Part shown: positions 10,635 through 56,910 of the stretch, one piece after another
Layout of the letters: each line of letters starts with the position of its first letter
Numbering within the stretch: the first letter of the stretch is position 1
Source: a virus
IMG/VR virus record: IMGVR_UViG_3300027898_000003
Span: 1 to 56,910 of that record
Direction: 5' to 3' (one strand)
Length of the DNA: 56,910 nucleotides
The notes under the pieces: generated by a model
Told to the model about the DNA's origin: nothing
The model's input: only the letters and a program-made list of their open reading frames with translations
Database searches by the model: none
Made by a program: the position numbers and the translations under genes

Positions 10635-10973
10635 AGGTTTGTTCTCGCAAGTTGAATCAAATGAAAACCTTTATTATATGGGGTTTGCGGGGGTATTGAG
10701 CAACGAGACGTCAATCCGTCGAAGCCGCCGTAATTCTTGGGGTCATGTGGCATATGTCCACTTAGTAAGATTTAGTGGGTTACGTTACTCAGTAGAGACA
10801 CGCCACATGACCCCATGTCAAAGCCCTCGCGTGGAAAATGAATATTTACTCTTACTTATTATATAGTTTACTCAATATGGCAAAAATCCGCATAAACACG
10901 TGGTTTTATTGAGTTACTTTTAGAGATGGTTGAAAAAAGCCACCTAGTGACTAAGTGGCTACCTTGAGTTTAC
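10635..10973. promoter_or_regulatory. 339-bp non-coding region with palindromes, TTTACTC repeats, an AT-rich stretch and a perfect TATAAT on the minus strand (10673-10678)
   Basis: No plausible ORF. Repeats read directly from the sequence. TATAAT lies about 40 nt upstream of ATG 10634. Confidence 0.6.
10738..10815. repeat. 14-bp perfect inverted repeat (TGGGGTCATGTGGC / GCCACATGACCCCA) with a 50-nt spacer
   Basis: Arms are at 10738-10751 and 10802-10815. The spacer contains CCACTTAGTAAGATTTAGTGG. Confidence 0.85.
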
Positions 10974-11189
10974 TCAGTGACTTACTAAGTGAGCTGTGCC
11001 GGCAACTGTAAACTTGGATATGTTGCGCGTAGCTACAATGACGCGCTCGCCGCGTGTCGACCCGGTAACCTTGGGATTGCCGCATCCATGCACACGAGCA
11101 TGGGCGTAAGTATCGACAGCTGTGAAGCTGCCTGCATTCACTAAGTGAACACGTTTAGGTGGTAACTTTGTACCGCGATTGATGTGCAT
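10974..11189 (-). CDS. hypothetical protein (71 aa)
   Basis: Track ORF 10974..11201. ATG 11189 has GGAG 7 nt upstream; a GTG at 11201 is the alternative. Confidence 0.55.
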   Translation of the reverse strand: MHINRGTKLPPKRVHLVNAGSFTAVDTYAHARVHGCGNPKVTGSTRGERVIVATRNISKFTVAGTAHLVSH

Positions 11190-11237
11190 GTAATGCTCCA
11201 CGTTTTGCGTCAGTCTGGGTTGACCAGTGCTGCGCGC

Positions 11238-11268
11238 AAAAAAAAAGAACGGGCCTCGCGGCCCGCCC
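11238..11268 (-). terminator. rho-independent terminator after gene 11272..11805
   Basis: Minus strand reads CGGGCC-GCGA-GGCCCG, followed by TTC and a run of nine T. Confidence 0.8.
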
Positions 11269-11271
11269 TCC

Positions 11272-11805
11272 TTACTCCTTGGCTTCCACCAAGTCGTACT
11301 TCTCGCTCAGGATTTCACGAGCATGGAACTCCGCAGCTGCTTTGACCATGTGGTCCAGCAAAGCTTTGCCATGCACGGGAATTCCCTCGCTGTTAGCGTC
11401 GTTCGCCTGCTTTGTCAGAGTATCCAAGAATTTGTCAAACTTCGCGGCAATCTCCAGCACGCTAACCGCTGGAGCTTCGGGCTTTGCTTCCTCCCATGGC
11501 TTCGCCATGAGACGTTCGCGCAGCTCAGGTGTATCAGCCTTGCCGAGCTTATGCATCTTGTCGTAGCTAAAGGTTTGCTTACCCTTAGCAATGAACATGC
11601 ATCCATTGAGCTCAAACCATGCACGCAGCGAAGCCTTGCGGCCTTGCTTGCCGATAGCGTCAACCAGCTGATCAGCAAGCGTTACATCACCATGCAACAC
11701 GGCATGGATGACGCATTCAACCGCACACGCTTGCACGTCACGGGTGATTTTGGCCGCTTGTTTGCCGATCGAACCGATGGCCTTGAGAATTTCAGTTTTT
11801 TGCAT
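11272..11805 (-). CDS. first leftward (early) gene, hypothetical protein (177 aa)
   Basis: ORF. No family recognised. Confidence 0.7.
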   Translation of the reverse strand: MQKTEILKAIGSIGKQAAKITRDVQACAVECVIHAVLHGDVTLADQLVDAIGKQGRKASLRAWFELNGCMFIAKGKQTFSYDKMHKLGKADTPELRERLMAKPWEEAKPEAPAVSVLEIAAKFDKFLDTLTKQANDANSEGIPVHGKALLDHMVKAAAEFHAREILSEKYDLVEAKE

Positions 11806-12370
11806 ATAACACTTTCAAAAATAAGGGAGATAAGAGGACCGGCTATTCGCGCCGCCGGGTAATGGCGCGTTGCATCTAAGGACGTGCAACTATCCGCCGA
11901 CCTGTCACGTCGGGCCTTTACACGGATAAGGTTTTGCCGTGCACTTCAGGGGATAGGACCGCGCCATTCAATCGCGCCGGATATACCCTTTGATTCCTAG
12001 AGCCGCCGCGGTGTAGGCACACTATGGGCGTGCCTATCCCCACATGCGGATAGCGTAGCGGCGCAGCAATCCTCGCGCCCTTTCGGGCCGGCGCACCTCG
12101 CAGAGAGTAATCTCGATCTGCTTAAGGCTGTCAAAACCGGACAACGGGGGGGCAGATGGCCAAGAGTTCCTTGAGCTTTAGCTCACCCCTTCAACACATA
12201 ACGTTCCCAAAAATAATAACCCTACAATTTAGTCAACTATTCCGAAGCCGTAATTTCGGCATCGACCTATTTTTCCAAGGTACCCCCCATCAAAACCGCC
12301 GCCAAAAAAATTTTCAGAAAATTCCGCACTCCAGTACACTCAGTGAACTTCGTAAGCAGAAAGGCTTAAC
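11806..12370. promoter_or_regulatory. divergent control region between the leftward and rightward gene blocks; GC-rich, densely self-complementary
   Basis: 565 bp without a convincing ORF. Contains multiple hairpins and GGATAG/CTATCC repeats. Confidence 0.75.
12106..12134 (-). promoter_or_regulatory. candidate sigma70-type leftward promoter
   Basis: Minus strand TTGACA (12134-12129), a 17-nt spacer, then ATTACT (12111-12106). Perfect -35, weak -10. Confidence 0.35.
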
Positions 12371-12955
12371 GTGAACCTTGACGACATCCCCGACAATTTC
12401 ACCATCGAGACCGGTTGGAAACCCAAATCGCAAGTGGACATCCCACCTGAAATGATTGTGGCCATCGCCCAAGGGCTCGAAGAACCCGACGAAATTGCTG
12501 CGCGTCATGGATTTACCGGCGACAAGTGGGAAAAACTCAAAGTCTGGAAGCCGTTTGTTACGGCAGTGGCCGAGCACCGGGCCGAACTGGAGCGTTCGGG
12601 CTACACGTTTCGGGTCAAAGCGCGGTTCATGGCCGAAGATTTGCTGGAAGAAACGTTCGTCAAAGCCAAAAACCCGGAAACATCACTGGCCCAAAAGCTC
12701 CAAGTGACCCAGTTTCTGACCCGAGTGGCAGGGTTGGAACCCAAGGAAGACAAATCCGGTTTGGTCGGCGAAGGTTTTAGCGTTACGATCAATATGAACG
12801 GCGCCAATACCACCATTTCAGGGGCATCAAATGGCGTTTCAAACAAAAATTTGTCCGAAATCGAAGATATAACCCCAAAAAACGGGGGTTACGTAATTGC
12901 GCCGTTGATCGACCCCACGCTTTTTGCAGAGATGGCGGCTAACCACGATGATTGA
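12371..12955 (+). CDS. putative small terminase subunit
   Basis: 194-aa ORF, first gene of the rightward block, upstream of terL. GTG start with AGAAAGG upstream. Assignment is by position only. Confidence 0.5.
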   Translation: MNLDDIPDNFTIETGWKPKSQVDIPPEMIVAIAQGLEEPDEIAARHGFTGDKWEKLKVWKPFVTAVAEHRAELERSGYTFRVKARFMAEDLLEETFVKAKNPETSLAQKLQVTQFLTRVAGLEPKEDKSGLVGEGFSVTINMNGANTTISGASNGVSNKNLSEIEDITPKNGGYVIAPLIDPTLFAEMAANHDD

Positions 12956-13169
12956 CCACACCGAACTGCCCCTATATTCCATCCAAGCCACCCACAAGTG
13001 CATTGTGTGCGGGGCAGAATGGCGGTTTAACCCGGAATGGGTAACCCCAAGTGGTCGAACGTTCGGACCGTCGTGGTCCGTCAAGAGTTTAAAGCACGGC
13101 GACTGCTGCGAAACCGGGGCTATGGACATGATCATGATTCCGCTGGACTCCGAAGTCTATGAAAGTTAA
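12948..13169 (+). CDS. small Cys-containing protein (73 aa) between terminase genes
   Basis: ATG 12948 overlaps the upstream stop. CIVC ... CC. Confidence 0.5.
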   Translation: MIDHTELPLYSIQATHKCIVCGAEWRFNPEWVTPSGRTFGPSWSVKSLKHGDCCETGAMDMIMIPLDSEVYES

Positions 13170-14583
13170 CTACGTCGCAGCCGCCATCAGTGCGGCGTTC
13201 ATGAAGTCCGATGCCAACGTACGGTTGTTGATGGGACCGGTGGGTTCGGGCAAGTCAGTGTCAAGCATCATGGAGATTTTTCGCCGGTGCAGCGAAATGC
13301 CGAAGTGCAAAGACGGCTTTAGGCGCTCTCGTTGGGCCATTATCCGTAACACCAGCCAGCAACTGCGCGACACCACGCTCAAAACATGGTTTAACTGGTT
13401 CCCTGACGGCATTGCAGGCACGTGGCGGGTGGGCGACAAAGTGTTCCTTATCAACATCGGGGACATCCGGGCTGAAATTCTGTTTTTGCCGTTGGATACC
13501 CCGGACGACCAGCGCAAACTGCTGTCTTTGGAGCTCACTGGTGTGTTCGTCAACGAAGCGCGTGAGGTGCACCCGGACCTGATCATTGCCGCACGGTCGC
13601 GCCTGACACGATACCCCAGTAAAAGCATGTTGGCCAAAGACCCGATCACCAAGAAAGTGCCGAAATACTGGTCCGGGTTGATCATGGATACCAACCCGCC
13701 GTCGGAAGACTCGTGGCTCTACGAGCAGTTCGAGGTCATTAAGCCCACCGGGTGGGAGTTGTACCGCCAGCCGTCGGGCCTGTCGCCGCAAGCAGAGAAC
13801 CGGGAAAACCTCGGTGACACGTACTACGAAGACATGATGGCCGGCGCCACGGAGGATTTCATCAGGGTCCACGTGCACGGGGAATACGGCCGGTCGCTTG
13901 TCGGGCGGGCGGTTTATGAGAAATCATTTGTCAAGGAATACCACGTTGCGCTTGTACCACTTCGGGCTATCGAGTACGACCTGTACCCCATCATCATTGG
14001 AATGGACTTCGGACGCACCCCGGCAGCAGTGCTTTTGCAAAGGGATGCTCGGGGGCGGATATTGGTGCTGGACGCCCTCTATGTGGAAAACATTGGACTC
14101 AAAGGCTTCTTGCAGTACCACCTCAAACCCCTGCTGTCCGAAAAGTTCTCGGCCAACCGGTACCTCATAAGCGGCGACCCGGCAGGCTGGGCCAAAAGTC
14201 AGTTAAATGAACAGAACGTTGAGGACGTTATCAAGGAAGAAGGACTGCGCTGCGTGCGCGCGCCGACCAACGACCCGACCAAACGCATCGCATCCGTGGA
14301 AAAAGCACTCAGTGGACAGGTCAACGGTGGAGCTTTGCTGTTGTTCAGCTCGTCAGACACCTCTGCCGGCATGAAGCACCTCAACCAAGCCATGTACGGC
14401 GGGTACAAATACAAGCGCAAAAAAGACGGGTCGTACGAGTCCGAGCCGGCCAAAGACGAGTTTAGCCACGTCAGCGACGCGTTGCAGTACGGAGTCCTGT
14501 GCATCGACAACGGCGGCTCGGCCGCGGCCTTTGGAACCACGCGTCGACAGGTAAAGGTTGCGCCCAGCATAGGATGGACATAG
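13159..14583 (+). CDS. terL: terminase large subunit
   Basis: Walker A GPVGSGKS. Walker B-like LTGVFVNEA. 474 aa. Position is before the portal gene. Confidence 0.9.
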   Translation: MKVNYVAAAISAAFMKSDANVRLLMGPVGSGKSVSSIMEIFRRCSEMPKCKDGFRRSRWAIIRNTSQQLRDTTLKTWFNWFPDGIAGTWRVGDKVFLINIGDIRAEILFLPLDTPDDQRKLLSLELTGVFVNEAREVHPDLIIAARSRLTRYPSKSMLAKDPITKKVPKYWSGLIMDTNPPSEDSWLYEQFEVIKPTGWELYRQPSGLSPQAENRENLGDTYYEDMMAGATEDFIRVHVHGEYGRSLVGRAVYEKSFVKEYHVALVPLRAIEYDLYPIIIGMDFGRTPAAVLLQRDARGRILVLDALYVENIGLKGFLQYHLKPLLSEKFSANRYLISGDPAGWAKSQLNEQNVEDVIKEEGLRCVRAPTNDPTKRIASVEKALSGQVNGGALLLFSSSDTSAGMKHLNQAMYGGYKYKRKKDGSYESEPAKDEFSHVSDALQYGVLCIDNGGSAAAFGTTRRQVKVAPSIGWT

Positions 14584-15725: not shown

Positions 15726-17822
15726 ATGGCTGGTCTACTGCGCGTCGAGAACAACGCGCAGCTTGACGCACGGCAGGCCGCCGAGCAGGCTGCGCAGGAC
15801 ACCCAGAACCAACCGGTCATTCTGGGCCTAGCCGCGCACCTTAAGAAATTGTGGGAACCGGCCAAGCGTGCCAAACTCCCCATTGAGACAAAAATGTTCT
15901 CGGCTTTGCGTCAGCGCAACGGCCAATACGAACAGACAGTGGCCAACGCCATTGCCCAGCAGGGCGGCTCTAGCGTGTACATGATGATCACGGAAACTAA
16001 ATGCCGTGGGGCAGAAAGCTGGCTGCGCGATATTTTGTTGGAAGATGGCAAGCTGCCTTTTCAAGTAAGCCCCCCGCCGGACCCGCAACTTGAGCCTGAC
16101 GATATGGAGCGCGTGCAAACTGAATTTGCACAAGCCATCATGCAAAAAGTTCAGCAAGGGCAACCGTTGGACCCTTCATCGCAGCAAGACCTCAAAGAGA
16201 TTGCCGAGCAATCCATACGCGCTGAAATCATGGAAGAAGCGCAAGAAACCGCTGACGCCATGCAAACCAAGATTGAGGACCAATTCGCCAAAGGCGGCCT
16301 GATCGAAGGCTTCAACGCGTTCATTAGTGACTTGGCAACGTACCCCAACGCATTCCTCAAAGGCCCCGTTGTGCGCAGAAAACGCACTATGGCGTGGGCC
16401 AAAGACGCTACCGGCAAATGGGCGCCGCAGGTGCAAGACACTTTGATGCCCACGTACACCCGCGTGGACCCATATAGGTTCTACCCCGAGCCGGGCGTCA
16501 CCGACATCAACGAAGGCTATGTGTTTGAGCACCATCGCTTGAGCCGCCCGGAATTGGCGGCGCTCAAAGGCGTGCCGGGGTATGACGACGCCGCAATCGA
16601 CTACGTGCTTGCGCACATGCCCGGCAGCAGCACGGGCACATGGCTCAACCCTAACTACCAGCTGCAGGCTACGCTGGAGCAAAAGTTCAACATCTGGGAC
16701 CGCCCGACCGCCGTGGTCGATGCGCTGGAGTTTCATGGCAAAGTAGCCGGCAGCATGTTGCTGGAGTGGGGAATGGACCCAAGCGACGTGCCGGACCCAT
16801 CCATGGAGTACGACGTCAGCGCATGGCTGATCGACAACTGGGTCATCAAGGCCACGCTCAACTACGACCCGCTGGGCCGTAACCCTTACTACACGTCGTC
16901 ATTTGTCAAGCGTCCGGGCGCTTTTTGGGGCTCGTCCATCCCCGAGCTGATTGAAGACATTCAAAACATGTGCAACGCCGCGGCGCGTGCGTTGGTCAAC
17001 AACATGGGCTTGGCGTCGGGCCCCATGGTTGAGGTCAATGTGGACCGTCTGCCGGCTGACGAGGAAATCACCACGCTTACTCCGTGGCGCATCTTTCAAG
17101 TCACCAACGACCCGTTGGGCTCTGGCCAACCTGCCATTCGGTTCAACCAGCCCCAGAGTAACGCACAAGAGCTGATGGAGGTGTACACGCACTTCACAAA
17201 GCTGGCAGACGACCAATCCGGCATTCCGGCCTACGTGTACGGCGACATGAACGTGCAGGGCGCTGGCCGCACGGCATCTGGCTTGTCAATGCTCATGGGC
17301 TCGGCCGGTAAAGGCATCCGGCAAGTCATCATGCATCTCGACATGGACGTGATTGGCAAATTGGTCAAAGCCCAGTACGACTGGAACATGCGATACGTGG
17401 ACGACGACAGCATCAAGGGCGACTGCACCACCGAACCAAAAGGCGCGATTCAGTTGGCCACCAAAGAGCAGCTCGACGTGCGCCGCGTGGAATTTTTGCA
17501 GGCCACAGCCAATCCTATGGATTCTCAGATCGTGGGCATCCCCGGGCGCGCGGCTATCCTGCGCGAAGTTGCCAAAGGGCTCAGCATGCCGGTGGACGAC
17601 ATTATCCCCAGCAAAGAAAAGCTAGAGCAAATGCAAAAAGAGCAAGAAGCTCAACAGGCGCAAGCACAGGCCCAGCAAGCGCAACAGGGCAAGCCCGGCG
17701 GCCCACCCGCTACCGGGCAGGGGCAGCAACAGCCGGCGCAAGGTGCTCCGGTCAACCCCGGCGGGGCGCCCATGGGTGGGCAAGACGCAAACACTGTCAC
17801 CAATCAAAACACTGGACACTAG
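15726..17822 (+). CDS. portal protein
   Basis: 698 aa, the first large gene after terL. Gln-rich C-terminal tail. Assignment is by size and position. Confidence 0.75.
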   Translation: MAGLLRVENNAQLDARQAAEQAAQDTQNQPVILGLAAHLKKLWEPAKRAKLPIETKMFSALRQRNGQYEQTVANAIAQQGGSSVYMMITETKCRGAESWLRDILLEDGKLPFQVSPPPDPQLEPDDMERVQTEFAQAIMQKVQQGQPLDPSSQQDLKEIAEQSIRAEIMEEAQETADAMQTKIEDQFAKGGLIEGFNAFISDLATYPNAFLKGPVVRRKRTMAWAKDATGKWAPQVQDTLMPTYTRVDPYRFYPEPGVTDINEGYVFEHHRLSRPELAALKGVPGYDDAAIDYVLAHMPGSSTGTWLNPNYQLQATLEQKFNIWDRPTAVVDALEFHGKVAGSMLLEWGMDPSDVPDPSMEYDVSAWLIDNWVIKATLNYDPLGRNPYYTSSFVKRPGAFWGSSIPELIEDIQNMCNAAARALVNNMGLASGPMVEVNVDRLPADEEITTLTPWRIFQVTNDPLGSGQPAIRFNQPQSNAQELMEVYTHFTKLADDQSGIPAYVYGDMNVQGAGRTASGLSMLMGSAGKGIRQVIMHLDMDVIGKLVKAQYDWNMRYVDDDSIKGDCTTEPKGAIQLATKEQLDVRRVEFLQATANPMDSQIVGIPGRAAILREVAKGLSMPVDDIIPSKEKLEQMQKEQEAQQAQAQAQQAQQGKPGGPPATGQGQQQPAQGAPVNPGGAPMGGQDANTVTNQNTGH

Positions 17823-35600: not shown

Positions 35601-38600
35601 ATGGCAGTTACGCCCGCCGCGAAAAATCCGGATACCTTTGCGAGTTCAAATCTTGCGGGGGGCAATAGCGCAACGGGGGCCGTCATGGGCCTCCCTCAAA
35701 ATCAGCCGTTAGGTTCTGCCGGGCAACCCCCTGCGCAGTCCAGCATGCCGCAACTGCCGACAGGCCCGTCGGGGTTTGATAATTATTTCAATTCCCCTCA
35801 ACAAGCCGCACCGCAAAATAACGACACCGTTATTCAGCAAATGTATGCGCAACAAGCAGGCAACGCGCAAGCCAACACGCAAGCTTTGTTGCAACCCCAA
35901 GCGTCTCAGCCAAGTTACGCGGTATCTGCGGACGACAAAAGCATTCTGATCGGTGGCAAAAGCTACGATATTGATAGCAACCCGACGGCTGTGTGGAACG
36001 CGGTTAATTCACCCGACGGCCAACAATCCGCAACGACGGCACCTCCCGGTTACAAACTGGTTCCAGCCAAACTTGTATCGGGTTATCTGCAAAACATCAA
36101 CCACGGCACGCTTAGCAACGCGTATCAAGGCGTCAAAGAATTGGCGACACGCGCGCCCGGGGCGTTTTTAAATACTGCTGGCGATGCTGCTCAATGGGCT
36201 GGCGCAGACACTGTGGGTCAGGGGCTCAACAACGCAGGTGCTGCCGTCGACCGGTTTACCGGCGCTGATCAAGTTCCTGACACGTTAGGTCGCGGTCCTG
36301 TTGGTTCGTGGTTTGTTCAGACGATGGCCGATGCTGCGCCCATGCTGCCAATCATGGCGGCATCTCTTGCGTTGCCTGAAACCGCGTTACCCCGAGCGTT
36401 TCAAATTCTGGGCGACGTGGGGCTCAACATGGGCCTGTTTGGCGGACAGGCTGCTCAGCAGAAAAAAGAGTCGCTTTTGCAACAAGGTGTCGCGCCTGAT
36501 CAAGCTAACCAAGCTGGATGGGTAGATTTTTTTACGCAAGGTGGTGGCCTTATGGCCATGGGGCATCTTGGCAAAGTTGCCAGTTCTGGCACGTACGGCG
36601 CAGCTCAGCAAGTGGTAGCCAAGCTTCAACAAGCTGTCGGCAAAGGCGCCATGACCGCAGAGCAAGCCGCAGCGGCCGTAACAAACCCCGCGTACTTTGC
36701 GCGCATGCTGGCCAACGGAGCCGGCAATATTGGTGTTCAGGGCGGCGTCATGTCGGGTATGGCTGGCGCCAGCGCGGCGTCGAACAATGCTTACGGCGGT
36801 CAACAACAAGACGTTGGGGATGCAATGTTGCACGGTCTTGGCGCCGGGCTGTCGTTTGGCGCGGTGTTGTCTCCGTTGGCAGGCATTCATTCGGTGCAAG
36901 ATTCGACTCGACGCAGCGCGTTGGGCGATGCGTTAGCTACCCCGGACCAGCAAATCGATTTGCTGCAAGCCGTCAAAATGGACAAAGCAGCCAAGGATAT
37001 TCAACCCGAAGTCGGTGCATTGGCCGGCAAAAACGCGGCTGCGCAATACACGGCTGATACGCAAGCCCGGTCGACCAACGCCTACGCCGACAACATGATT
37101 GCGGCAGAACGCGCGGCGCGCGGTGAAACCCCGGGATTTGGCGGTCAGGCTCCAGCAGCTCAAGCACCTGCCCCCGATGCATCGCGTCAAGCCGACGTGG
37201 AAGCTGCATGGCCAGCACAACCCGAAGCACCTGTTGCCCTTACACCTAAAGGTAAAAAAGGCCAGCCGCCGGTCGACCCCAACGCACCGCCGCCTCCACC
37301 GGGAAATCCGCCGCCCGGCGCACCTCCGGGCGCTGAGCCTGCCGCACCAACTGCCGATCAAGAACGGGCTGAATTGGTGCGGGAAGACGCACTGAACGCT
37401 GTTGGCATCCCCAAAAAGAACAAACCAGCGCGCGACAAAGCCGCAGCCGCCATGGACGCGGGCATCAACCTTGAAAGTCCAGAAGCCGAAACGCTCGTCA
37501 AAGCGTTAAAGGCTGGCAAAATGGCGTTGGCAGACGAAGAAATTGCCAAACTGAAAGGCGCACAAAATGACGGCACATCTGGACCCGTTGCACCCGGAAC
37601 TGCAGGAGTGGGTCAACCTACAAGTGTTGAGCCTGCAAGAAGCGTGGGAACTGGAATTGCTAACGATAAACAGCCCACTGGAGACGTTCGTCCCAGCACC
37701 GAAGCATCTTCAGCCGGCGTGCTAACGCCTGTTTCTGGCGGAAATGCCCGTGTGGGTGCGTCTGCAGTAGAGAAACCTATGATCGTTGGCACCAACGAAG
37801 GTTGGGTTGCCACAAACGGCGATTATTACGGCAACGGTGCACGACCAACCGATAAACCTGTTGAACGCCCTGTCAAAACCGGACAAACCGGTTTGCCTAC
37901 TGGAAAAGTTCAGCGCGCGCCGGCTTTACCCAAATCAGTCGTTCCAGATTTCAGTGAAGCACCTACCGAAGTCAAACCAGCCACACCGGGCAGGCTTACT
38001 CTTAAAGCACCCAAAATCGAGAAAAAGCTGACGGCCGAACAAGCGTTTAACCGCCTCAAGACCGGCTTGCCCAAATACAGCGAGTTGACGCCCGAGCAGC
38101 GCGCGGTGATCGACGACACGCATGCCAAGGGTGAACTGACCCAAGAAAACTGGGATGCCACCGCAAAGACGGCCAAAGAGACGCAAGCTAAGCAAAACCG
38201 CAAACGCGTGGAAGCTGAAAGCGCTGCCGAAGACGCCAAGACGCCCGAACAACTGGCTGCGGACGCTGCAGAAAAGACGACCATACCGCCCGCTGATGTG
38301 TTTCACAAAGTATTCGGCAAAATTTTCGGTGAGCGCGTGTGGCAAATTGCCAACGGTAAAAAGTTTGGCGAAGTTGGTGCGGCCGAAAAGAAACCGGTGT
38401 CTGAAGACGGCGTGCGCAAGTCTGTCAACCGTTTGACAGCAGAGCGCATTGAAGCCGCTTTGAAGAAAGGTGACATTACACCAGCCGAAGCCATTGCGGT
38501 GAAAGACGCCCTTGACATCGCGCAAGAAAAAACTGCCAAGCGCAAAACACAAGCAGCCATTCAACAAGACGGTGGTGATTCCAGTCTGCTTACCAACGAC

Positions 38601-41600
38601 ATCAGCCCAGAGCAAACCAAAGATTTGATGATTGGCGACGGCATTCACGTGCAAGGCGCTGACAACATGGGCGTCAAATCCAAAGCCGAAAAAACGGCTG
38701 AAGTCGAACAACAAAAAGCCATTGAAGCGGAAAAGCCTGAAACGCCCATTGAAGAAACTCGGGGCAGCGGTTTAGCGACCAATGAAGAAGTGCTGGTTCA
38801 AAAAACCAAAGCGCTTGAAGAACAGCTCCAAGCAGCGCTCAAAGCCGGCGACAAAAAGAAGGCCTCAGAAATCCGCGACCAGCAAAAAGTGCTGTCCGAT
38901 TTGTACAAAAAAGGTTTAAAAAAACAAGAAGAAAAAGAAACAACGACGTTGGTTAAAACTGAAGACAAACCCATCGATGAACGCATCGACGAGCTCAACG
39001 ACAAAATTGCTGATGCGGAAGACGCAGGCGACCACAAGCTGGTTACCAAACTCGAAGACGAACGTCAGAAGCTGTACGACAAACGCGACGCTGAAATCGC
39101 CGGAGAAACTCAGCTTGCTGCGGACGAAAAAGGCGATACAACGGAAGACGGCCGTTGGAAAGACGAGTCGGATGACCCCACTGAATCAGCACATGTGGCA
39201 GATAACGCGTCGTCGGATGCCGATTTGCAGATGGACCACGATTTGCGCCAAATTGCCAAAGGGTCCGAGCCGTTTAAACAGGCTATCCAGTACGCGATTG
39301 CCAAAGAAACTAACAAGTTTCGCAAACAGATTTTGACCAACGTGCTTGCACGGTATGAGCAGCTTAAAAAACTAGGATTTGAGTTTTCGTTCGGAGTGAC
39401 CGAGCCGGGCCGTGCGCTGCGTGGCAATATGGTTGGCGTTAGCAGCCACACTCCCGGCGTTTTAGGAGAAGCCAGCAAAGTCGAAGTTAACCTCAACGGT
39501 GCGCACATGGGTGCCCGATCGGGTACCAACCAAGAAACTTTAGCGCATGAGCTCATTCACTCAGTGACCCAAGCTGCCATCAGTGCAAACCCTGAAGGTA
39601 CTGCAGCGCGCAAATTGCAAGAGTTTTATAACGAACTACGGCAAGACATTCTTAGTCGCAAAAATGCCAACAAGCTAAACGACTTTGAAAAAGCATTTTT
39701 CTCAGGCAAAAACAACTCGCTGGAAAACGCCCATGAGTTGCTATCGTGGGGGCTTACCAACCCCAAAATGCAGGAGTATTTGGCCAGCCGCATTGACCCG
39801 AAAGGGCGCACGTGGTTCCACCGCTTGCTCGACATTGTTGCCAACGCTTTAGGTTTGCACAAGGTTGACGAGCGTTCCGATCTTGCACGCTTGATTTCTG
39901 TCAGCGACGAACTGATGTCGGAAGACACGGGGGCATACGTTAAACACGCCAACGACCGCGGATTGTCTTTTGGTAAGCAAGAAAACAAATCAGGGTATTC
40001 CGGGTTTGCGTTGCTCAACAAAGGTCGTGGCGAAATTGTGTACGACAAAGACGGGCTTATATTGATTCGCAGTAAAAATCTGCGAGGTGACGAAATTTTC
40101 GTGCCGGGCAAAGCCGGCGTAGGTATCGCGCGCGTGGGCCTTGACCACTTCACAGGCGATTGGATTTCTCCGGCGGATATGGCCAAGTTGAAAGACGTGG
40201 CCAACAGTTTGAAGACTGAAGGTGCTGCCATGGTGTCGCGCAACATCGACAAGTTGCCTGACAGGTTGCAAGAGCCTGCGCGCACCATCACCGACCGGCT
40301 TAACCGCTGGACCAATTCTGGTCTGGACAAAGTAATATTTACCCGCGATCTGGTGAAGCGTGGAGTTGCCCGGGGCTTGCATGCGTTGGAGACGTTTGAC
40401 GAACACCGCGAATCGCGCGATGCGTTGGCTGGCCACTACCAAAAAGCCGCGTTAAACGCAGTGGAAGATGTGCGCACCTTTAGCACCCCCGAAAAACGCA
40501 CACTTAGTGAATTCTTGCAAGAATCCACGTTGTCAACGGCATGGGGGTATGGTCCCAAGCGGGCAGAGAACAGCCGCGCAGCCAAGCTGTACGATGCTTT
40601 GTCCCCTCGCGCCAAACGGGTTGCGGAAGCCGTGTTTGCCCATGGCGATACCATACTGAAAGCCAAAAAAGACGCGATTACGGAATTGGCTGACAGCATG
40701 TACAAACCCATGATTGCCGAAGCGACGGCAGCTGGACATCACAACGTAGCCCGGGACCTTGAGCGCGAACGTGAAGGGTTGCTGAAAAAGTACAACACGC
40801 TGTTGTCCATCGGTGAAGGTCAGCCTTACGTGTCCATGCAACGGCGTGGTGATTTTGTAGCGGTTGGTAAGTCCGACGAGTATTTAAAAGCCGAAGCGGC
40901 TGCAAATGCAGAAGACGCCACGCCAACACATCGCGCGCTGCTGGAAAAAATGCAGACGGACCCGAATCATTATTTGGTGTCTGAAGCCCAGAGCGAACAA
41001 GAAGCCAAAGCCTTGCGCGACAACATGCGTGCAGCCGGGTTCCCGTCGACGGGCGACCACACGTATTACAAACCCAAAGACCGTTGGACCCAAGAAGGCG
41101 GCGGCGTGCTGGCCGGTATGGCGCGACTGCGCAACAAGCTGGACATGATGGCTCAAGAGTCTACCAACCCAGCGGACAAAGCGCAAGCGGCGTCCATGCG
41201 CAACCTATTGACCCACATGTGGTTGGATGCATTGAGCCACCGCAGTTCTCGCAAAGCTGAGATGCGCCGGGTAGGTGTACACGGTACGATGGATGTGGTC
41301 GACTCATTTCGCCAATCGGCTGCGGCAGACGCGCACTTTATTTCGGGCATCAAGTACAACGACAAAATGCTCACCGCGCTCAAAAATGCGCGCAAACAGG
41401 CTGACCGGGGCGAAGGCGAAGAACGCACTACAAACTTGAATCTGCTGGATGAATTTTTGAAACGCCATGAGCAAAGCACCAACGCGGTGCCGACTCCATG
41501 GGCCAACAAAATCACCAAAGCCACGGCGTTGTGGCAAATCGCCACCAGCCCGGCGCATTACGTCGGTAACCTGATGCAGCCATGGACGATGACGCTGCCT

Positions 41601-43010
41601 TACTTGCAAGCGCAGCACGGGTACGCCAAAGGCATGAACGAGTTTTTTAAAGCGTACAAAGAAATCGGCGGGATTTTGGGTAAGACTGGGTTGCTGCGTT
41701 CCCTGCGCATCGAAGACATGCCAGCTGACGTGCGCGCGCCCATGCAACGTTTGCTGGAACTGGGACGGTTGGACATTGGCATGAACACCGAATACGGCTC
41801 CATGTCCATGCACCCTAAAAACATCGTGACGCGCGCGGCGCAGGCGGCAACCGACCGGGTAGCTGCAGCCTCGTTGAAGATGGAAGCATTGAACCGTTTG
41901 GCCAGCGCGGCGGCGGCATACCGGTTGGAGTTTGCCCGTACCGGCGATGCTGAAAAAGCATTGCACTACGCTGCGGACGTGGTAGCTGAAACCCACGGTG
42001 ACCATAGCCGGGCCAACGCACCGCGGGTGTTTAACAACGGGTTTGGCAAAGTGGCGTTGCAGTTTCGCAAGTTCCAGTTGGTGCAGCTGACTCAGATGGC
42101 CAAAATGATCGGCAACCTCAAAACGGCCGACCCAGAAGAACGTGCCATAGCCATACGCCATTTGGCGTACACGCTGGCCCATGTGGGCGTATTGGGAGGC
42201 GTTATCGGCATGCCCGGTTTCAGTACGTACAGCGCCGTGTCGCAAAACCTTACTAATATGTTAACAGGCATTGAAGGCGAAGACTGGGAAACAAAGATCG
42301 AAAAAGCAGTGGGAGATAAAAATGTCGCCCAGTTGCTGCTGCGGGGTATTCCCGGTGCACTGGGTGTAGATTTGACCAGCAAAGTCGGCTATGGCGACAT
42401 GCTGGGAATTGCGCCTTACACGAATGTAAACCCTGCCGATCGCAAAAGTGTGCAAGACGCCATTGGCCAAGTGACTGCGGGTCCGTTTGGTGGTCTTGTG
42501 GGCCGCGCTGCCGAATCGTTACATCACATTCTGGTAGGCAACTATTACAAAGGTATCGAAGGTATGATGCCTCAAGGTATTGCCAATGTCATGCGTGGTG
42601 CGCGCGAATTGACCAATGGCGTGACCAATACCAAAAACGACAAGCTGATGAATTTGAATGCGGGCGAAGCGTTTGCCGAAGCGCTTGGATTTCAGCCGTC
42701 CAGCAAATCGTTGATGCAATCGGAAACTGGCGCCATGATTCAGTCGACGGAACAGTTTAAAGACCGGTTGGAAATGCTTAAAGAGCGTTACAACAACACC
42801 GTCCAAAGTCACGGCGACCCCAGCAGCGACATTAAAAACCTCAACGAGCTCCGGGCAGAAATGCAGGCACGTGGGTTTAAACCAACACCGCTGGGAGACA
42901 TGTTGCGCGCGCCGACACAGCAGCTTATCCGTCAAATATTTACGACGCCAAGCGGTGTGCAGTACAAGCCGTCCGACACGGGCCGGGCAGCAGCTCAATT
43001 CCCGAAATAA
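35601..43010 (+). CDS. giant (2469 aa) virion-associated multidomain protein with zincin-like HExxH motif
   Basis: Single uninterrupted ORF. Disordered N-terminus, Gly/Ala-rich hydrophobic segments, a Lys/Glu-rich coil, HELIH at nt 39546-39560, and a large helical C-terminal half. Confidence 0.8.
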   Translation: MAVTPAAKNPDTFASSNLAGGNSATGAVMGLPQNQPLGSAGQPPAQSSMPQLPTGPSGFDNYFNSPQQAAPQNNDTVIQQMYAQQAGNAQANTQALLQPQASQPSYAVSADDKSILIGGKSYDIDSNPTAVWNAVNSPDGQQSATTAPPGYKLVPAKLVSGYLQNINHGTLSNAYQGVKELATRAPGAFLNTAGDAAQWAGADTVGQGLNNAGAAVDRFTGADQVPDTLGRGPVGSWFVQTMADAAPMLPIMAASLALPETALPRAFQILGDVGLNMGLFGGQAAQQKKESLLQQGVAPDQANQAGWVDFFTQGGGLMAMGHLGKVASSGTYGAAQQVVAKLQQAVGKGAMTAEQAAAAVTNPAYFARMLANGAGNIGVQGGVMSGMAGASAASNNAYGGQQQDVGDAMLHGLGAGLSFGAVLSPLAGIHSVQDSTRRSALGDALATPDQQIDLLQAVKMDKAAKDIQPEVGALAGKNAAAQYTADTQARSTNAYADNMIAAERAARGETPGFGGQAPAAQAPAPDASRQADVEAAWPAQPEAPVALTPKGKKGQPPVDPNAPPPPPGNPPPGAPPGAEPAAPTADQERAELVREDALNAVGIPKKNKPARDKAAAAMDAGINLESPEAETLVKALKAGKMALADEEIAKLKGAQNDGTSGPVAPGTAGVGQPTSVEPARSVGTGIANDKQPTGDVRPSTEASSAGVLTPVSGGNARVGASAVEKPMIVGTNEGWVATNGDYYGNGARPTDKPVERPVKTGQTGLPTGKVQRAPALPKSVVPDFSEAPTEVKPATPGRLTLKAPKIEKKLTAEQAFNRLKTGLPKYSELTPEQRAVIDDTHAKGELTQENWDATAKTAKETQAKQNRKRVEAESAAEDAKTPEQLAADAAEKTTIPPADVFHKVFGKIFGERVWQIANGKKFGEVGAAEKKPVSEDGVRKSVNRLTAERIEAALKKGDITPAEAIAVKDALDIAQEKTAKRKTQAAIQQDGGDSSLLTNDISPEQTKDLMIGDGIHVQGADNMGVKSKAEKTAEVEQQKAIEAEKPETPIEETRGSGLATNEEVLVQKTKALEEQLQAALKAGDKKKASEIRDQQKVLSDLYKKGLKKQEEKETTTLVKTEDKPIDERIDELNDKIADAEDAGDHKLVTKLEDERQKLYDKRDAEIAGETQLAADEKGDTTEDGRWKDESDDPTESAHVADNASSDADLQMDHDLRQIAKGSEPFKQAIQYAIAKETNKFRKQILTNVLARYEQLKKLGFEFSFGVTEPGRALRGNMVGVSSHTPGVLGEASKVEVNLNGAHMGARSGTNQETLAHELIHSVTQAAISANPEGTAARKLQEFYNELRQDILSRKNANKLNDFEKAFFSGKNNSLENAHELLSWGLTNPKMQEYLASRIDPKGRTWFHRLLDIVANALGLHKVDERSDLARLISVSDELMSEDTGAYVKHANDRGLSFGKQENKSGYSGFALLNKGRGEIVYDKDGLILIRSKNLRGDEIFVPGKAGVGIARVGLDHFTGDWISPADMAKLKDVANSLKTEGAAMVSRNIDKLPDRLQEPARTITDRLNRWTNSGLDKVIFTRDLVKRGVARGLHALETFDEHRESRDALAGHYQKAALNAVEDVRTFSTPEKRTLSEFLQESTLSTAWGYGPKRAENSRAAKLYDALSPRAKRVAEAVFAHGDTILKAKKDAITELADSMYKPMIAEATAAGHHNVARDLEREREGLLKKYNTLLSIGEGQPYVSMQRRGDFVAVGKSDEYLKAEAAANAEDATPTHRALLEKMQTDPNHYLVSEAQSEQEAKALRDNMRAAGFPSTGDHTYYKPKDRWTQEGGGVLAGMARLRNKLDMMAQESTNPADKAQAASMRNLLTHMWLDALSHRSSRKAEMRRVGVHGTMDVVDSFRQSAAADAHFISGIKYNDKMLTALKNARKQADRGEGEERTTNLNLLDEFLKRHEQSTNAVPTPWANKITKATALWQIATSPAHYVGNLMQPWTMTLPYLQAQHGYAKGMNEFFKAYKEIGGILGKTGLLRSLRIEDMPADVRAPMQRLLELGRLDIGMNTEYGSMSMHPKNIVTRAAQAATDRVAAASLKMEALNRLASAAAAYRLEFARTGDAEKALHYAADVVAETHGDHSRANAPRVFNNGFGKVALQFRKFQLVQLTQMAKMIGNLKTADPEERAIAIRHLAYTLAHVGVLGGVIGMPGFSTYSAVSQNLTNMLTGIEGEDWETKIEKAVGDKNVAQLLLRGIPGALGVDLTSKVGYGDMLGIAPYTNVNPADRKSVQDAIGQVTAGPFGGLVGRAAESLHHILVGNYYKGIEGMMPQGIANVMRGARELTNGVTNTKNDKLMNLNAGEAFAEALGFQPSSKSLMQSETGAMIQSTEQFKDRLEMLKERYNNTVQSHGDPSSDIKNLNELRAEMQARGFKPTPLGDMLRAPTQQLIRQIFTTPSGVQYKPSDTGRAAAQFPK

Positions 43011-56427: not shown

Positions 56428-56910
56428 TCTTTCGCTCCTATGTTGTGGATGGCATTCCAAGCATCCAAGTCAAACGTGCCTGCATCGTCCATGCGGCTTG
56501 CCAATGTCCGTGAAATACCGTACAGATTGCGTTGCATTTCTGTAATTGCCGTCAATGCATCACGGGCTTCCTGAAACAGTGGCATCACCATTTGTAATTT
56601 GGCAAGCATGTATTTAGGTGGAAGCCCCGCGTCCTCTTGCGGCTCCCGCTTTTCTGCGGGTGTGGTGGTGTAGAGAGGCTTCCAATCGCCCAAAGTGGTA
56701 TTTGGTTTTTGGGTATCCCATTCCAAATCGACAACATCACCATGCTCTTTTATGTACCACGCCACTGGCTCACTCACTGCACCCTTTGCTTCTGCGGGTG
56801 GGGTGGTGTAGAGCTTTTGTCCGACATACTTGGAAACATCAAAGTAACCGCCCTTTCCATCTTGCAGATAGACCTGTCCCGCACCATTCCGCACCACTTG
56901 CGCCACAGGC
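56424..56910 (-). CDS. 3' (C-terminal) part of the junction-spanning gene (see 1..389)
   Basis: The open frame runs to the window edge and continues in frame at base 91. C-terminus DAWNAIHNIGAKE. Confidence 0.7.
   Translation of the reverse strand, partial: PVAQVVRNGAGQVYLQDGKGGYFDVSKYVGQKLYTTPPAEAKGAVSEPVAWYIKEHGDVVDLEWDTQKPNTTLGDWKPLYTTTPAEKREPQEDAGLPPKYMLAKLQMVMPLFQEARDALTAITEMQRNLYGISRTLASRMDDAGTFDLDAWNAIHNIGAKE
56821..56910. repeat. second copy of the 90-bp terminal redundancy
   Basis: Identical to bases 1-90. Confidence 0.95.

Follow-up and report, generated by a model that had tools for sequence, protein, structure and literature searches.

A multi-domain structured RNA conserved upstream of an early gene in uncultured freshwater phages: a candidate 5′ leader

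What is encoded where the two gene arms of a phage genome part, if not a protein? The question is raised by positions 11806-12370 of the IMG/VR virus record IMGVR_UViG_3300027898_000003, of which we analysed positions 1 to 56,910 (hereafter the window, 56,910 nucleotides (nt) in length). This region lies between a putative small-terminase gene (terS) on the plus strand and the first gene of the early arm (gene 1) on the minus strand, at the point where the arms diverge. An earlier reading of the DNA letters alone (the sequence-only reading) had proposed a structured leader or noncoding RNA that would be read from the minus strand into the first early gene, with DNA packaging or initiator sites as the alternative. 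Its view of the diverging arms agrees with the gene map, and the structured RNA is borne out by covariation in relatives. Comparison with these relatives shows that positions 12163-11839, read on the minus strand, encode what is predicted to be a conserved, multi-domain structured RNA directly upstream of gene 1 and in the same sense. Its architecture consists of a 5′ domain of three composite stems, the core hairpins H1/H2, H3 and H4, a hairpin H5, and an H-type pseudoknot, and more than 10 helices are backed by compensatory changes. The structured RNA measures roughly 330-400 nt in the window and 330-500 nt in relatives, and the element has been kept with compensatory changes in dozens of uncultured freshwater phages.

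Folding energies did not contribute to this result. The minimum free energy was −126.3 kcal/mol on the minus strand, against a mean of −120.3 kcal/mol for dinucleotide shuffles (z = −1.28), and −123.4 against −116.6 kcal/mol on the plus strand (z = −1.25). With z near −1.3 on both strands, which is within chance, folding energy was dropped as evidence of structure, and structure is therefore shown only by comparison with relatives. Hence, the extensive secondary structure described in the sequence-only reading does not exceed chance in terms of energy, whereas some of its helices are supported by covariation.

Relatives were found through gene 1, whose 177-amino-acid (177-aa) protein has 186 homologues in metagenomes. 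Flanking DNA was recovered for ~80 gene 1 homologues from JGI, ENA and Logan assemblies (loci numbered with the prefix L below), and in all ~80 recovered loci a gene-free stretch of 500-1250 nt lies ahead of the gene 1 homologue. We counted paired cells in the alignments and used partners slid by 1-3 columns as a control. In the core (H1-H4; 20 distinct sequences), 91.6% of 510 cells were paired, compared with 33-49% after sliding; 21 of the 28 pairs had changed on both sides, and none of 500 shuffles reached any of the observed measures. For H5 together with the pseudoknot (6 sequences), 97.9% of cells were paired compared with 28-42% after sliding, and 7 of 16 pairs had changed on both sides. 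The 5′ domain of the window type was 94.4% paired compared with 32-56%, with changes on both sides in 18 of 44 pairs, a count that rests on five sequences and on a structure taken from the same alignment. Across all clades (20 variants), the pseudoknot was 97.0% paired compared with 33-55%, and all five pairs of its stem S2 had changed on both sides, in a set that was collected with a pattern demanding S2 complementarity. Moreover, a covariance model of the core, built from 13 sequences, matched 42 loci, all on the gene 1 strand. Six held-out loci that were fetched later (L082-L087) were matched at E-values of 1e-8 to 1e-24, and no match was obtained in the clade with a ~50%-identical gene 1 protein.

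The same pattern of changing sequence and kept pairing is seen in the individual helices (Table 1). In the conserved block at the 5′ end, a small UGUC/GACA hairpin may form, although it is weakly supported. The hairpin that follows, Ha, has a wholly different sequence and the same shape in L005. The helices of the long irregular hairpin were 97% and 88.5% paired, with five pairs changed on both sides, and its apical stem reads GCCC/GGGC, GACUC/GAGUC, GGC/GCC or ACCC/GGGU, depending on the relative. The composite stem has 23 pairs that were 95-100% paired, 10 of them changed on both sides, in five sequences with the structure taken from the same alignment; three are G-U pairs, of which two are invariant and one is present in three of the five sequences. 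In the core, H1 was 97.3% and H2 82.4% paired, with 8 of their 12 pairs changed on both sides, and a separate count found the H1 pairs formed in 76 of 78 cells. H3 was 96.2% paired, with changes on both sides in 5 of 7 pairs, and two of its conserved G-U pairs become G-C or U-A in some relatives. The H4 region (helices 4 and 5 of the core count) was 89-96% paired, and 8 of its 9 pairs had changed on both sides. The H4 stem occurs, among other forms, as CCGAC, CCGUA, CCUAA and CCGAA, such that CCGAC/GUCGG is replaced by, for example, CCGUA/UACGG or CCUAA/UUAGG.

The pseudoknot is the most widely conserved module, with the general form GCGCC-N4-6-S2-GGCGC-(G/U/A)AAUA-S2′. Its stem S1 is invariant, whereas 12 different S2 sequences, all complementary, occur among 20 variants. 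It is found 30-110 nt upstream of gene 1, even in the clade with a ~50%-identical protein; in the window it ends 33 nt before the gene 1 AUG. Other relatives have a permuted, L-type pseudoknot (S2 with 4/4 pairs and five different sequences). In most relatives, a GNRA hairpin, AACCC-GCAA-GGGUU, and a second hairpin, GCAUGGG..CCCAUGC, stand between the pseudoknot and the Shine-Dalgarno sequence, and both are missing in the window.

Some of the helices drawn in the sequence-only reading have a place in this fold. The hairpin CGCGCC/GGCGCG (11848/11864) is present at these coordinates as stem S1 of the pseudoknot, supported by the covariation analysis. GTTGCA/TGCAAC (11869/11885) is H5, CCGAC/GTCGG is H4, and GCAGAGAG-TAAT-CTC-GA-TCTGC, which had been placed at 12099-12122 and lies one nucleotide further in at 12100-12121, is Ha; all three are kept by compensatory changes. 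The hairpin TATCCG/CGGATA (11891/11923), proposed to enclose CCGAC/GTCGG, can be found in the letters but clashes with the covarying H3 and is missing from most relatives. A long-range helix with a three-way junction had also been suggested. Its components GGGGATAGGACCGCG (11949-11963), CGCGGT (12007-12012) and CCTATCCCC (12033-12041) are present, but the pairing of GGGGATAGG with CCTATCCCC was rejected. Instead, CCUAUCCC pairs locally with GGGUAUA in H1. Among relatives the centre of CCUAUCCC becomes UGU, UGC, UCA or UGA, and the other side of H1 matches with ACA, CA, UGA or UCA. Where the centre changes in L005, L009, L061, L074 and L076, the H1 partner follows and GGGGAUAGG stays fixed, leaving a mismatch or wobble. 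The three-way junction was thus rejected because GGGGAUAGG does not track the changes in CCUAUCCC while H1 does. In the window-type consensus GGGGAUAGG is used locally, with GGGG pairing to CACC and UAGGCACGC to GUGUGCCUA. A transient alternative pairing of GGGGAUAGG is conceivable, its complementarity being 83% pairable across relatives.

The strand of the folded molecule can be read from the pairs themselves. The core contains 44 G-U cells compared with 6 A-C cells, and several G-U pairs of the core and the 5′ domain are conserved or alternate with G-C or A-U. GNRA tetraloops occur on the minus strand only, where they close two stems (GAAA in the window, GCAA in relatives). The excess of G-U pairs and the GNRA loops therefore imply that the minus strand, which has the sense of gene 1, is the one that folds. 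Furthermore, the pseudoknot, the free drift of stem sequences and the strand-biased wobble point to an RNA rather than to a binding site in duplex DNA.

A hidden protein gene did not emerge from the gap: its open stretches are not shared with the closest relative (the longest in the sense direction is 67 versus 39 codons, in other frames), and insertions or deletions of 1 nt inside conserved blocks argue against coding. A plus-strand open reading frame (ORF) of 72 codons at 12156-12374 has a low-complexity product without a family match and looks spurious. The sequence-only reading had proposed an Rfam scan and a covariation test; the latter supported helices by pair counts as described above, and the former yielded no family match. 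Specifically, Rfam 15 gave no matches at the gathering score in the whole window, and only noise at E ≤ 10 in 11700-12450 (CRISPR-DR9 with 15 bits, where 45 are needed, and SNORD75). Rfam likewise found nothing in the element of 9 close and 8 distant relatives, and ARAGORN detected no tRNA or tmRNA. The hairpin Hb together with GCGAGGAUUG is weakly similar to a CRISPR repeat, which would hint at an RNA anti-CRISPR; the idea was discarded, as the match was not significant (E = 3.2) and the flank is paired in the consensus fold.

How widely does the RNA occur? A blastn search of the region against 50,697 phage records returned no similar sequence, and IMG/VR scans with proteins and DNA patterns matched only 3-4 contigs. 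The element or its pseudoknot is present in three IMG/VR contigs only (L044 and L045, and the pseudoknot in L002). No match was found in the GTDB genome collection with a DNA pattern and a protein profile, so these genomes offered neither a prophage copy nor a clue to the host. The cultured phages Rhizobium phage RHph_TM3_14A and Pseudomonas phage Rollin, related through TerL, have another gene order and lack the element. Among the loci recovered, the element always accompanies gene 1. This holds even for the clades L061-L068 and L069-L072, where a ~600-aa gene takes the place of terS as the divergent neighbour. This difference in neighbours implies that the element belongs with early gene 1 and not with the terminase.

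BLAST comparison with relatives delimited two conserved blocks, 11845-11990 and 12128-12164, which are 78-90% identical; for the 5′ block at 12129-12163, segments shared with many relatives reach 83-94% identity. Local RNA blocks are 88-93% identical where the protein is only 58% identical. A general statement that the RNA is more conserved than the gene was dropped, because it holds for the local blocks alone; conservation of the whole element is about that of the coding sequence. The relatives show two types of 5′ domain and three types of 3′ end, namely an S-type pseudoknot, an L-type pseudoknot with an extra hairpin AAUGGG, and an X-type without a recognisable pseudoknot. Peripheral RNA domains have been swapped whole between close relatives (L003-L087) and do not track the protein tree. 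Two stretches of the Sphaerotilus phage vB_SnaP-R1 (L088, MN844877.1), 1117-1135 and 1261-1291, drew attention: a weak pseudoknot-like copy, GCGUC..CCG-GGCGC-AAUGU-CGG, lies 67 nt upstream of the gene 1 homologue gp2, and the motif GGGCGCAATGTCG(A/G)G is present twice. As this phage is a cultured member of the Autographiviridae, the copy may represent a distant version of the pseudoknot outside the metagenomic relatives.

Which transcript carries the RNA depends on gene 1 and its surroundings. In phiKMV-like Autographiviridae, homologues with ~30% identity to gene 1 occupy the second gene position from the left end, and the PHROG 1448 family to which gene 1 is matched is present in hundreds of these phages. 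The position of these homologues in the early region read by the host polymerase supports calling the minus arm early. Searches for a function of gene 1 in Pfam, PHROGs, a PDB profile search, and Foldseek against PDB and BFVD were all uninformative. The hairpin that follows gene 2 is likely to end a transcript comprising the leader, gene 1 and gene 2. Past this terminator-like hairpin lies a conserved patch (10878-10826), 83-90% identical in relatives, with a perfect TATAAT. It is part of a second conserved non-coding gap (10640-10995, minus strand) with at least six palindromic ACTNAGT / CACTNAGTG boxes; L069 (2900-3200) has ~8 copies of the box (G)TTCACTCAGTGA(C). The arrangement resembles an array of operators or iterons surrounding a delayed-early promoter. 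The terminator after gene 2 and the separate TATAAT promoter together imply that the first transcript would be short, consisting of the leader, gene 1 and gene 2.

The start of this transcript is less clearly marked. In the sequence-only reading, a perfect TTGACA (12134-12129) with a 17-nt spacer and ATTACT (12111-12106) served as the promoter; the letters are present, but the promoter was rejected. As a −10 box ATTACT has a T at position 2, and it forms the loop of Ha, which reads AUUG or AUCC in relatives. The putative −35 box reads TTCACA, TTTACA or TTGCCA in relatives, and conserved, RNA-like UUGGCCAUCUG continues upstream of it. A sigma-70 promoter scan of 11000-13000 returned no promoter-like sites. 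As the best promoter candidate we infer TTGACT (12236-12231), followed after 15-17 nt by a T-rich box, [G/T/A]ATTTT, which would produce a leader of ~400 nt.

This TTGACT (on the minus strand) lies in A+T-rich DNA between the RNA and terS that also contains a T-rich box, G/C runs and conserved GUUAUGUG. This stretch, distinct from that of the RNA, may hold promoters or an origin. A 13-bp palindrome, GACTAA(T)TTAGTC, overlaps the conserved TTGACT upstream of the RNA in L004, L005, L061, L003 and L008 and is degenerate in the window (12220-12237, GACTAAATTGTAG); an operator of the early promoter is one possible role. Runs of G or C (12146-12152 and 12276-12285) flank conserved UUGGCCAUCUG and stand at the same places in relatives, with a polarity that flips among close relatives, from a C-run in the window to a G-run in L046, L005 and L069. 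Many metagenomic contigs end precisely at these runs. The clustering of contig ends in the element was considered as a sign of genome termini, an idea that was abandoned: given their location at G/C homopolymers, and an adaptor in one case, the ends are artefacts of assembly. In that record (L073, 1-34), a Nextera transposase adaptor (…AGATGTGTATAAGAGACAG) is fused to RNA sequence, an artefact in the public record.

The window itself is a complete phage genome of ~56.8 kb (~56,820 bp), circularly assembled or terminally redundant, as implied by an exact 90-bp direct repeat at its ends (1-90 and 56821-56910). Its cut point is arbitrary and falls within a minus-strand ORF. The plus-strand arm runs from 12371 to 43010 and encodes, besides the proteins in Table 1, internal virion proteins and a virion protein of 2469 aa. 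The minus-strand arm runs from 11805 down to 1 and from 56910 down to 43078, with small early genes, an AAA ATPase, a family A DNA polymerase, a DUF927 primase-helicase and an SNF2 helicase. Searches of the window proteins, including with Pfam and PHROGs, recognised no phage RNA polymerase. The 2469-aa protein (35601-43010, plus strand) ends the structural arm. Its similarity to PHROGs of giant virion proteins, one of them labelled DarB-like antirestriction, is confined to the C-terminal quarter. It was considered as an N4-like virion RNA polymerase, for which the hairpins would be DNA promoters, and rejected, as PDB and Pfam searches found no match and the PHROG matches are C-terminal only. 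Region 11806-12370 is the largest stretch without a same-strand ORF of at least 50 aa, but not the sole one, as the sequence-only reading had it, since a second such stretch of 323 nt lies at 10651-10973. The small-terminase label rests on synteny with TerL; Pfam and PHROG searches with the 194-aa protein found no match. An extra small gene (47-89 aa) lies between terS and the leader in L001, L048, L053, L074, L084 and L086, and in L001 (41-223) it encodes a 60-aa Pro/Lys-rich product.

Table 1. Positions of the RNA modules, neighbouring genes and other features in the window.
Feature	Positions	Strand	Remarks
Conserved 5′ block	12129-12163	−	UUGGCCAUCUG-(C or G run)-GUUGUCCGGUUUUGACA; BLAST and alignment; contains the TTGACA of the sequence-only reading
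Covariation-supported RNA body	11839-12121	−	5′ domain, core H1-H4, H5, pseudoknot; pair counts with controls
Hairpin Ha	12100-12121	−	GCAGA-UC-GAG-AUUA-CUC-UCUGC; 8 pairs, 92% paired, 3 changed on both sides
Long irregular hairpin	12060-12097	−	GGUGCGC/GCUGCGCC enclosing CGGCCC-GAAA-GGGCGCG; GNRA cap
Composite stem	11997-12053	−	CUA..UAG, CCGC/GCGG, UGUGGGG/CACCGCG, hairpin UAGGCACGC/GUGUGCCUA; contains GGGGAUAGG
H1 closing H2	11949-11988	−	H1 GGG-U-AUA / UAU-C-CCC; H2 GCGC/GCGC in the window
H3	11919-11943	−	UGCACGG/CCGUGUA; conserved 11-nt loop CAAAACCUUAU
H4	11895-11916	−	(GG)CCGAC/GUCGG(CG); invariant 7-nt loop GUGACAG
H5	11869-11890	−	GUUGCA/UGCAAC; 10-nt loop ending AGA; 97% paired, 4/6 changed on both sides
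H-type pseudoknot	11839-11868	−	S1 GCGCC (11868-11864) with GGCGC (11853-11849); S2 CCGGC (11858-11854) with GCCGG (11843-11839); L1 AUUAC; L3 GAAUA
Linker to gene 1	11803-11838	−	U/C-rich, apparently unstructured (UCCUCUUAUCUCCCUUAUUUUUGAAAGUGUUAU); weak Shine-Dalgarno, gene 1 AUG; from sequence
Gene 1	11272-11805	−	177 aa; PHROG 1448 homologue (E = 3e-26); function unassigned; RNA always precedes gene 1
Gene 2	10974-11201	−	Second early gene
Strong terminator-like hairpin	10938-10960	−	10-bp stem and UUUUUU; 14 nt after gene 2 stop
A+T-rich regulatory DNA	12164-12370		Between RNA and terS; alignments with relatives
Putative small terminase (terS)	12371-12955	+	194 aa; upstream of TerL; outside RNA element
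TerL	13159-14583	+	Downstream of terS
SU10-like portal	15726-17822	+	

What might such an RNA do? The reading that we favour, if tentatively, is that it forms the cis-acting 5′ leader of a short immediate-early operon, in which the pseudoknot beside the ribosome-binding site would be the operator. The transcript would start near 12200, probably from the TTGACT-associated promoter, and the leader would act in cis, after transcription initiation, to set the output of genes 1 and 2. A protein binding the pseudoknot would control ribosome access or the life of the mRNA. The gene 1 product would be the simplest candidate for this protein, with a host protein such as S1, or the ribosome, as further possibilities. 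The upstream domains would fold the leader, protect it (e.g. from Rho or RNases), or add binding surfaces. We are led to an operator because the pseudoknot is the one module common to the whole family and has co-evolved with gene 1, because its stem S1 and its A-rich L3 are invariant, as expected of a recognition surface, and because the window has, after the pseudoknot, a U-rich single strand containing the start region, a layout known from the T4 gene 32 operator. A leader rather than a separate gene is suggested because there is no terminator on the minus strand in 11806-12370 and a strong one after gene 2.

Several observations weigh against an operator. The ~300 nt of conserved structure upstream of the pseudoknot go far beyond the needs of a translational operator, most relatives have two more hairpins before the Shine-Dalgarno sequence is reached, and X-type relatives (L005, L061) have no recognisable pseudoknot at all. 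The Shine-Dalgarno sequence looks free in the consensus folds, without a sequestering helix. Gene 1 shows no recognisable RNA-binding fold; its AlphaFold2 model has a pLDDT (predicted local distance difference test score) of 71 and no significant PDB match. No promoter for the leader passes the sigma-70 scan, and the sampling of the 5′ domain and of the pseudoknot, as given above with their counts, counts on the same side.

Because the operator leaves ~300 nt of extra conserved structure unexplained, its main rival is a stable, trans-acting noncoding RNA derived from the early transcript, which would serve as a decoy or scaffold for a host protein, as an anti-defence RNA, or as the RNA subunit of a ribonucleoprotein. 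We regard this as unlikely. Its size, its conserved loops (GUGACAG, CAAAACCCUAU and GAAUA) and its swappable peripheral domains resemble ribonucleoprotein RNAs or ornate RNAs more than operators; the element would be the first part of the early arm to be transcribed, and the identity of the local blocks (88-93%) compared with that of the protein (58%) fits an RNA acting in its own right. However, neither a terminator nor a recognisable processing site precedes gene 1, the element never occurs apart from gene 1 in the recovered loci, and repeated protein-binding loop motifs of the CsrB or 6S kind are lacking. There is accordingly a small chance, on our estimate, that the element represents a new class of large, modular phage RNA, made as the first product of infection and with a biochemical role of its own. 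Such an RNA could be the core of a ribonucleoprotein with co-transcribed early proteins, or it could act as a decoy against a host factor or defence system. The universally conserved pseudoknot and the invariant GUGACAG and CAAAACCCUAU loops would then be active or binding surfaces, and the position in a 5′ untranslated region (UTR) would provide early delivery instead of indicating cis-regulation.

Processive antitermination of the HK022 put type, in which the leader would bind the host polymerase and allow read-through into the ~25-kb early and replication arm, seems distinctly improbable. The element does open the early arm at its 5′ terminus, searches detected no phage RNA polymerase, and a strong intrinsic terminator lies ~850 nt downstream with ~24 kb of same-strand genes beyond it. 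Read-through would nevertheless be unneeded, as a conserved, perfect TATAAT promoter with operator-like boxes follows the terminator. Moreover, size and architecture differ from those of put RNAs (compared by description), and the corresponding spacer in relatives shows operator arrays and no clear terminator.

The sequence-only reading had also raised an attenuator- or riboswitch-like switch, in which CCTATCC pairs instead with CGGATAG. In its general form, junctions or the pseudoknot would bind a small molecule or ion while GGGGAUAGG or GGGUAUA compete for CCUAUCCCC. Pseudoknots of the H type whose L3 is A-rich often serve as ligand pockets. CGGATAG is present at 12047-12053 as described, and GGATAG/CTATCC, counted five times in that reading, occurs exactly four times in 11890-12053 (the fifth is GGATAA); these copies are indeed clustered, being 4 of the 13 in the 56.9-kb window. 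In most relatives GGGGAUAGG retains its complementarity to CCUAUCCCC, with 83% of cells pairable, though covariation favours H1 (97% paired), and the GGGGAUAGG partner shows no covariation and is never compensated. An expression platform is lacking, since there is no terminator between the structure and gene 1 on the minus strand of 11806-12370 and no helix over the Shine-Dalgarno sequence. No Rfam riboswitch matched even at E ≤ 10, and the regulated genes hint at no ligand. We therefore consider a riboswitch-like sensor very unlikely, and the attenuator is not supported.

Least probable by our estimate, and barely credible, is an element acting as DNA, whether as a TerS-bound pac site, as an origin of replication, or as promoters in hairpins that extrude from single-stranded DNA: the element adjoins the putative terS where the arms diverge, with an A+T-rich tract and G/C runs beside it (12164-12370), and hairpins of single-stranded DNA tolerate G-T wobble too, but the L061 and L069 clades keep the element by gene 1 without terS as a neighbour, only chance-level two-copy direct repeats and no direct-repeat or iteron arrays are present, and the drifting stems with kept pairing, the pseudoknot, the GNRA tetraloops and the strand-biased wobble are hallmarks of RNA.

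Large structured RNAs with good support are few, and for most of them the function turned out to be a surprise. No position in a phage genome is more privileged than that of this element, which would be the first RNA to appear on infection and precedes an early gene of the PHROG 1448 family. If the operator is true, it would offer the first functional handle on this family and a new example of phage control based on a pseudoknot; if the RNA acts independently, phages would have in it a new means of takeover or anti-defence. In either case, the swapping of peripheral domains around a fixed core is a natural experiment in RNA modularity.

Among known systems, the operator of T4 gene 32 comes closest in function. 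There, a 5′ pseudoknot precedes an A/U-rich tract without structure that covers the ribosome-binding site, and the operator is bound by gp32 itself (PMC10690425). In both cases an H-type pseudoknot lies in a phage 5′ leader, tens of nt upstream of the start codon, the RNA and the gene travel together over long evolutionary distances, and in the window a U-rich single strand with the ribosome-binding site follows the pseudoknot. In contrast to T4 gene 32, the pseudoknot here is only the final module in a leader that exceeds 300 nt, two hairpins set it apart from the Shine-Dalgarno sequence in most relatives, and the gene 1 protein is not an OB-fold single-strand-binding protein; RNA binding by gene 1 is hypothetical. 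The two systems share no sequence similarity.

The RNA also resembles HK022 put and lambda nut in being a structured RNA at the start of an early operon read by the host polymerase, with a terminator downstream. Put RNAs are ~70 nt long with two stem-loops, and put and nut sites generally comprise 15-75 nt with one or two stem-loops, whereas more than 10 helices are found here, a separate promoter follows the terminator, and no boxA/boxB-like pair is conserved across the family of this element.

Like the ornate bacterial and phage RNAs ROOL, GOLLD, HEARO and raiA, all of which have Rfam entries, the element is large, multi-domain, supported by covariation, associated with phages and mainly metagenomic, and has no assigned function. 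Unlike these RNAs, it matches no Rfam model, either at the gathering score or at E ≤ 10, is smaller, and is fixed in the 5′ UTR of one gene instead of being free-standing or near tRNAs. A 2023 catalogue of candidate structured RNAs of viruses and phages lists 8,495 IMG/VR candidates with a mean length of 67 nt (PMC10690425). Like the entries of this catalogue, the element is an intergenic, covariation-supported phage RNA, which are often found upstream of a particular gene family, and its three IMG/VR contigs place it at the edge of the catalogue's inclusion rule. We file it, on comparative grounds and judged against Rfam 15, as a new RNA family in the known role of a structured 5′ leader. By analogy, it would work most like the translational-operator leader of a phage, while its size and modularity resemble those of the ornate RNAs.

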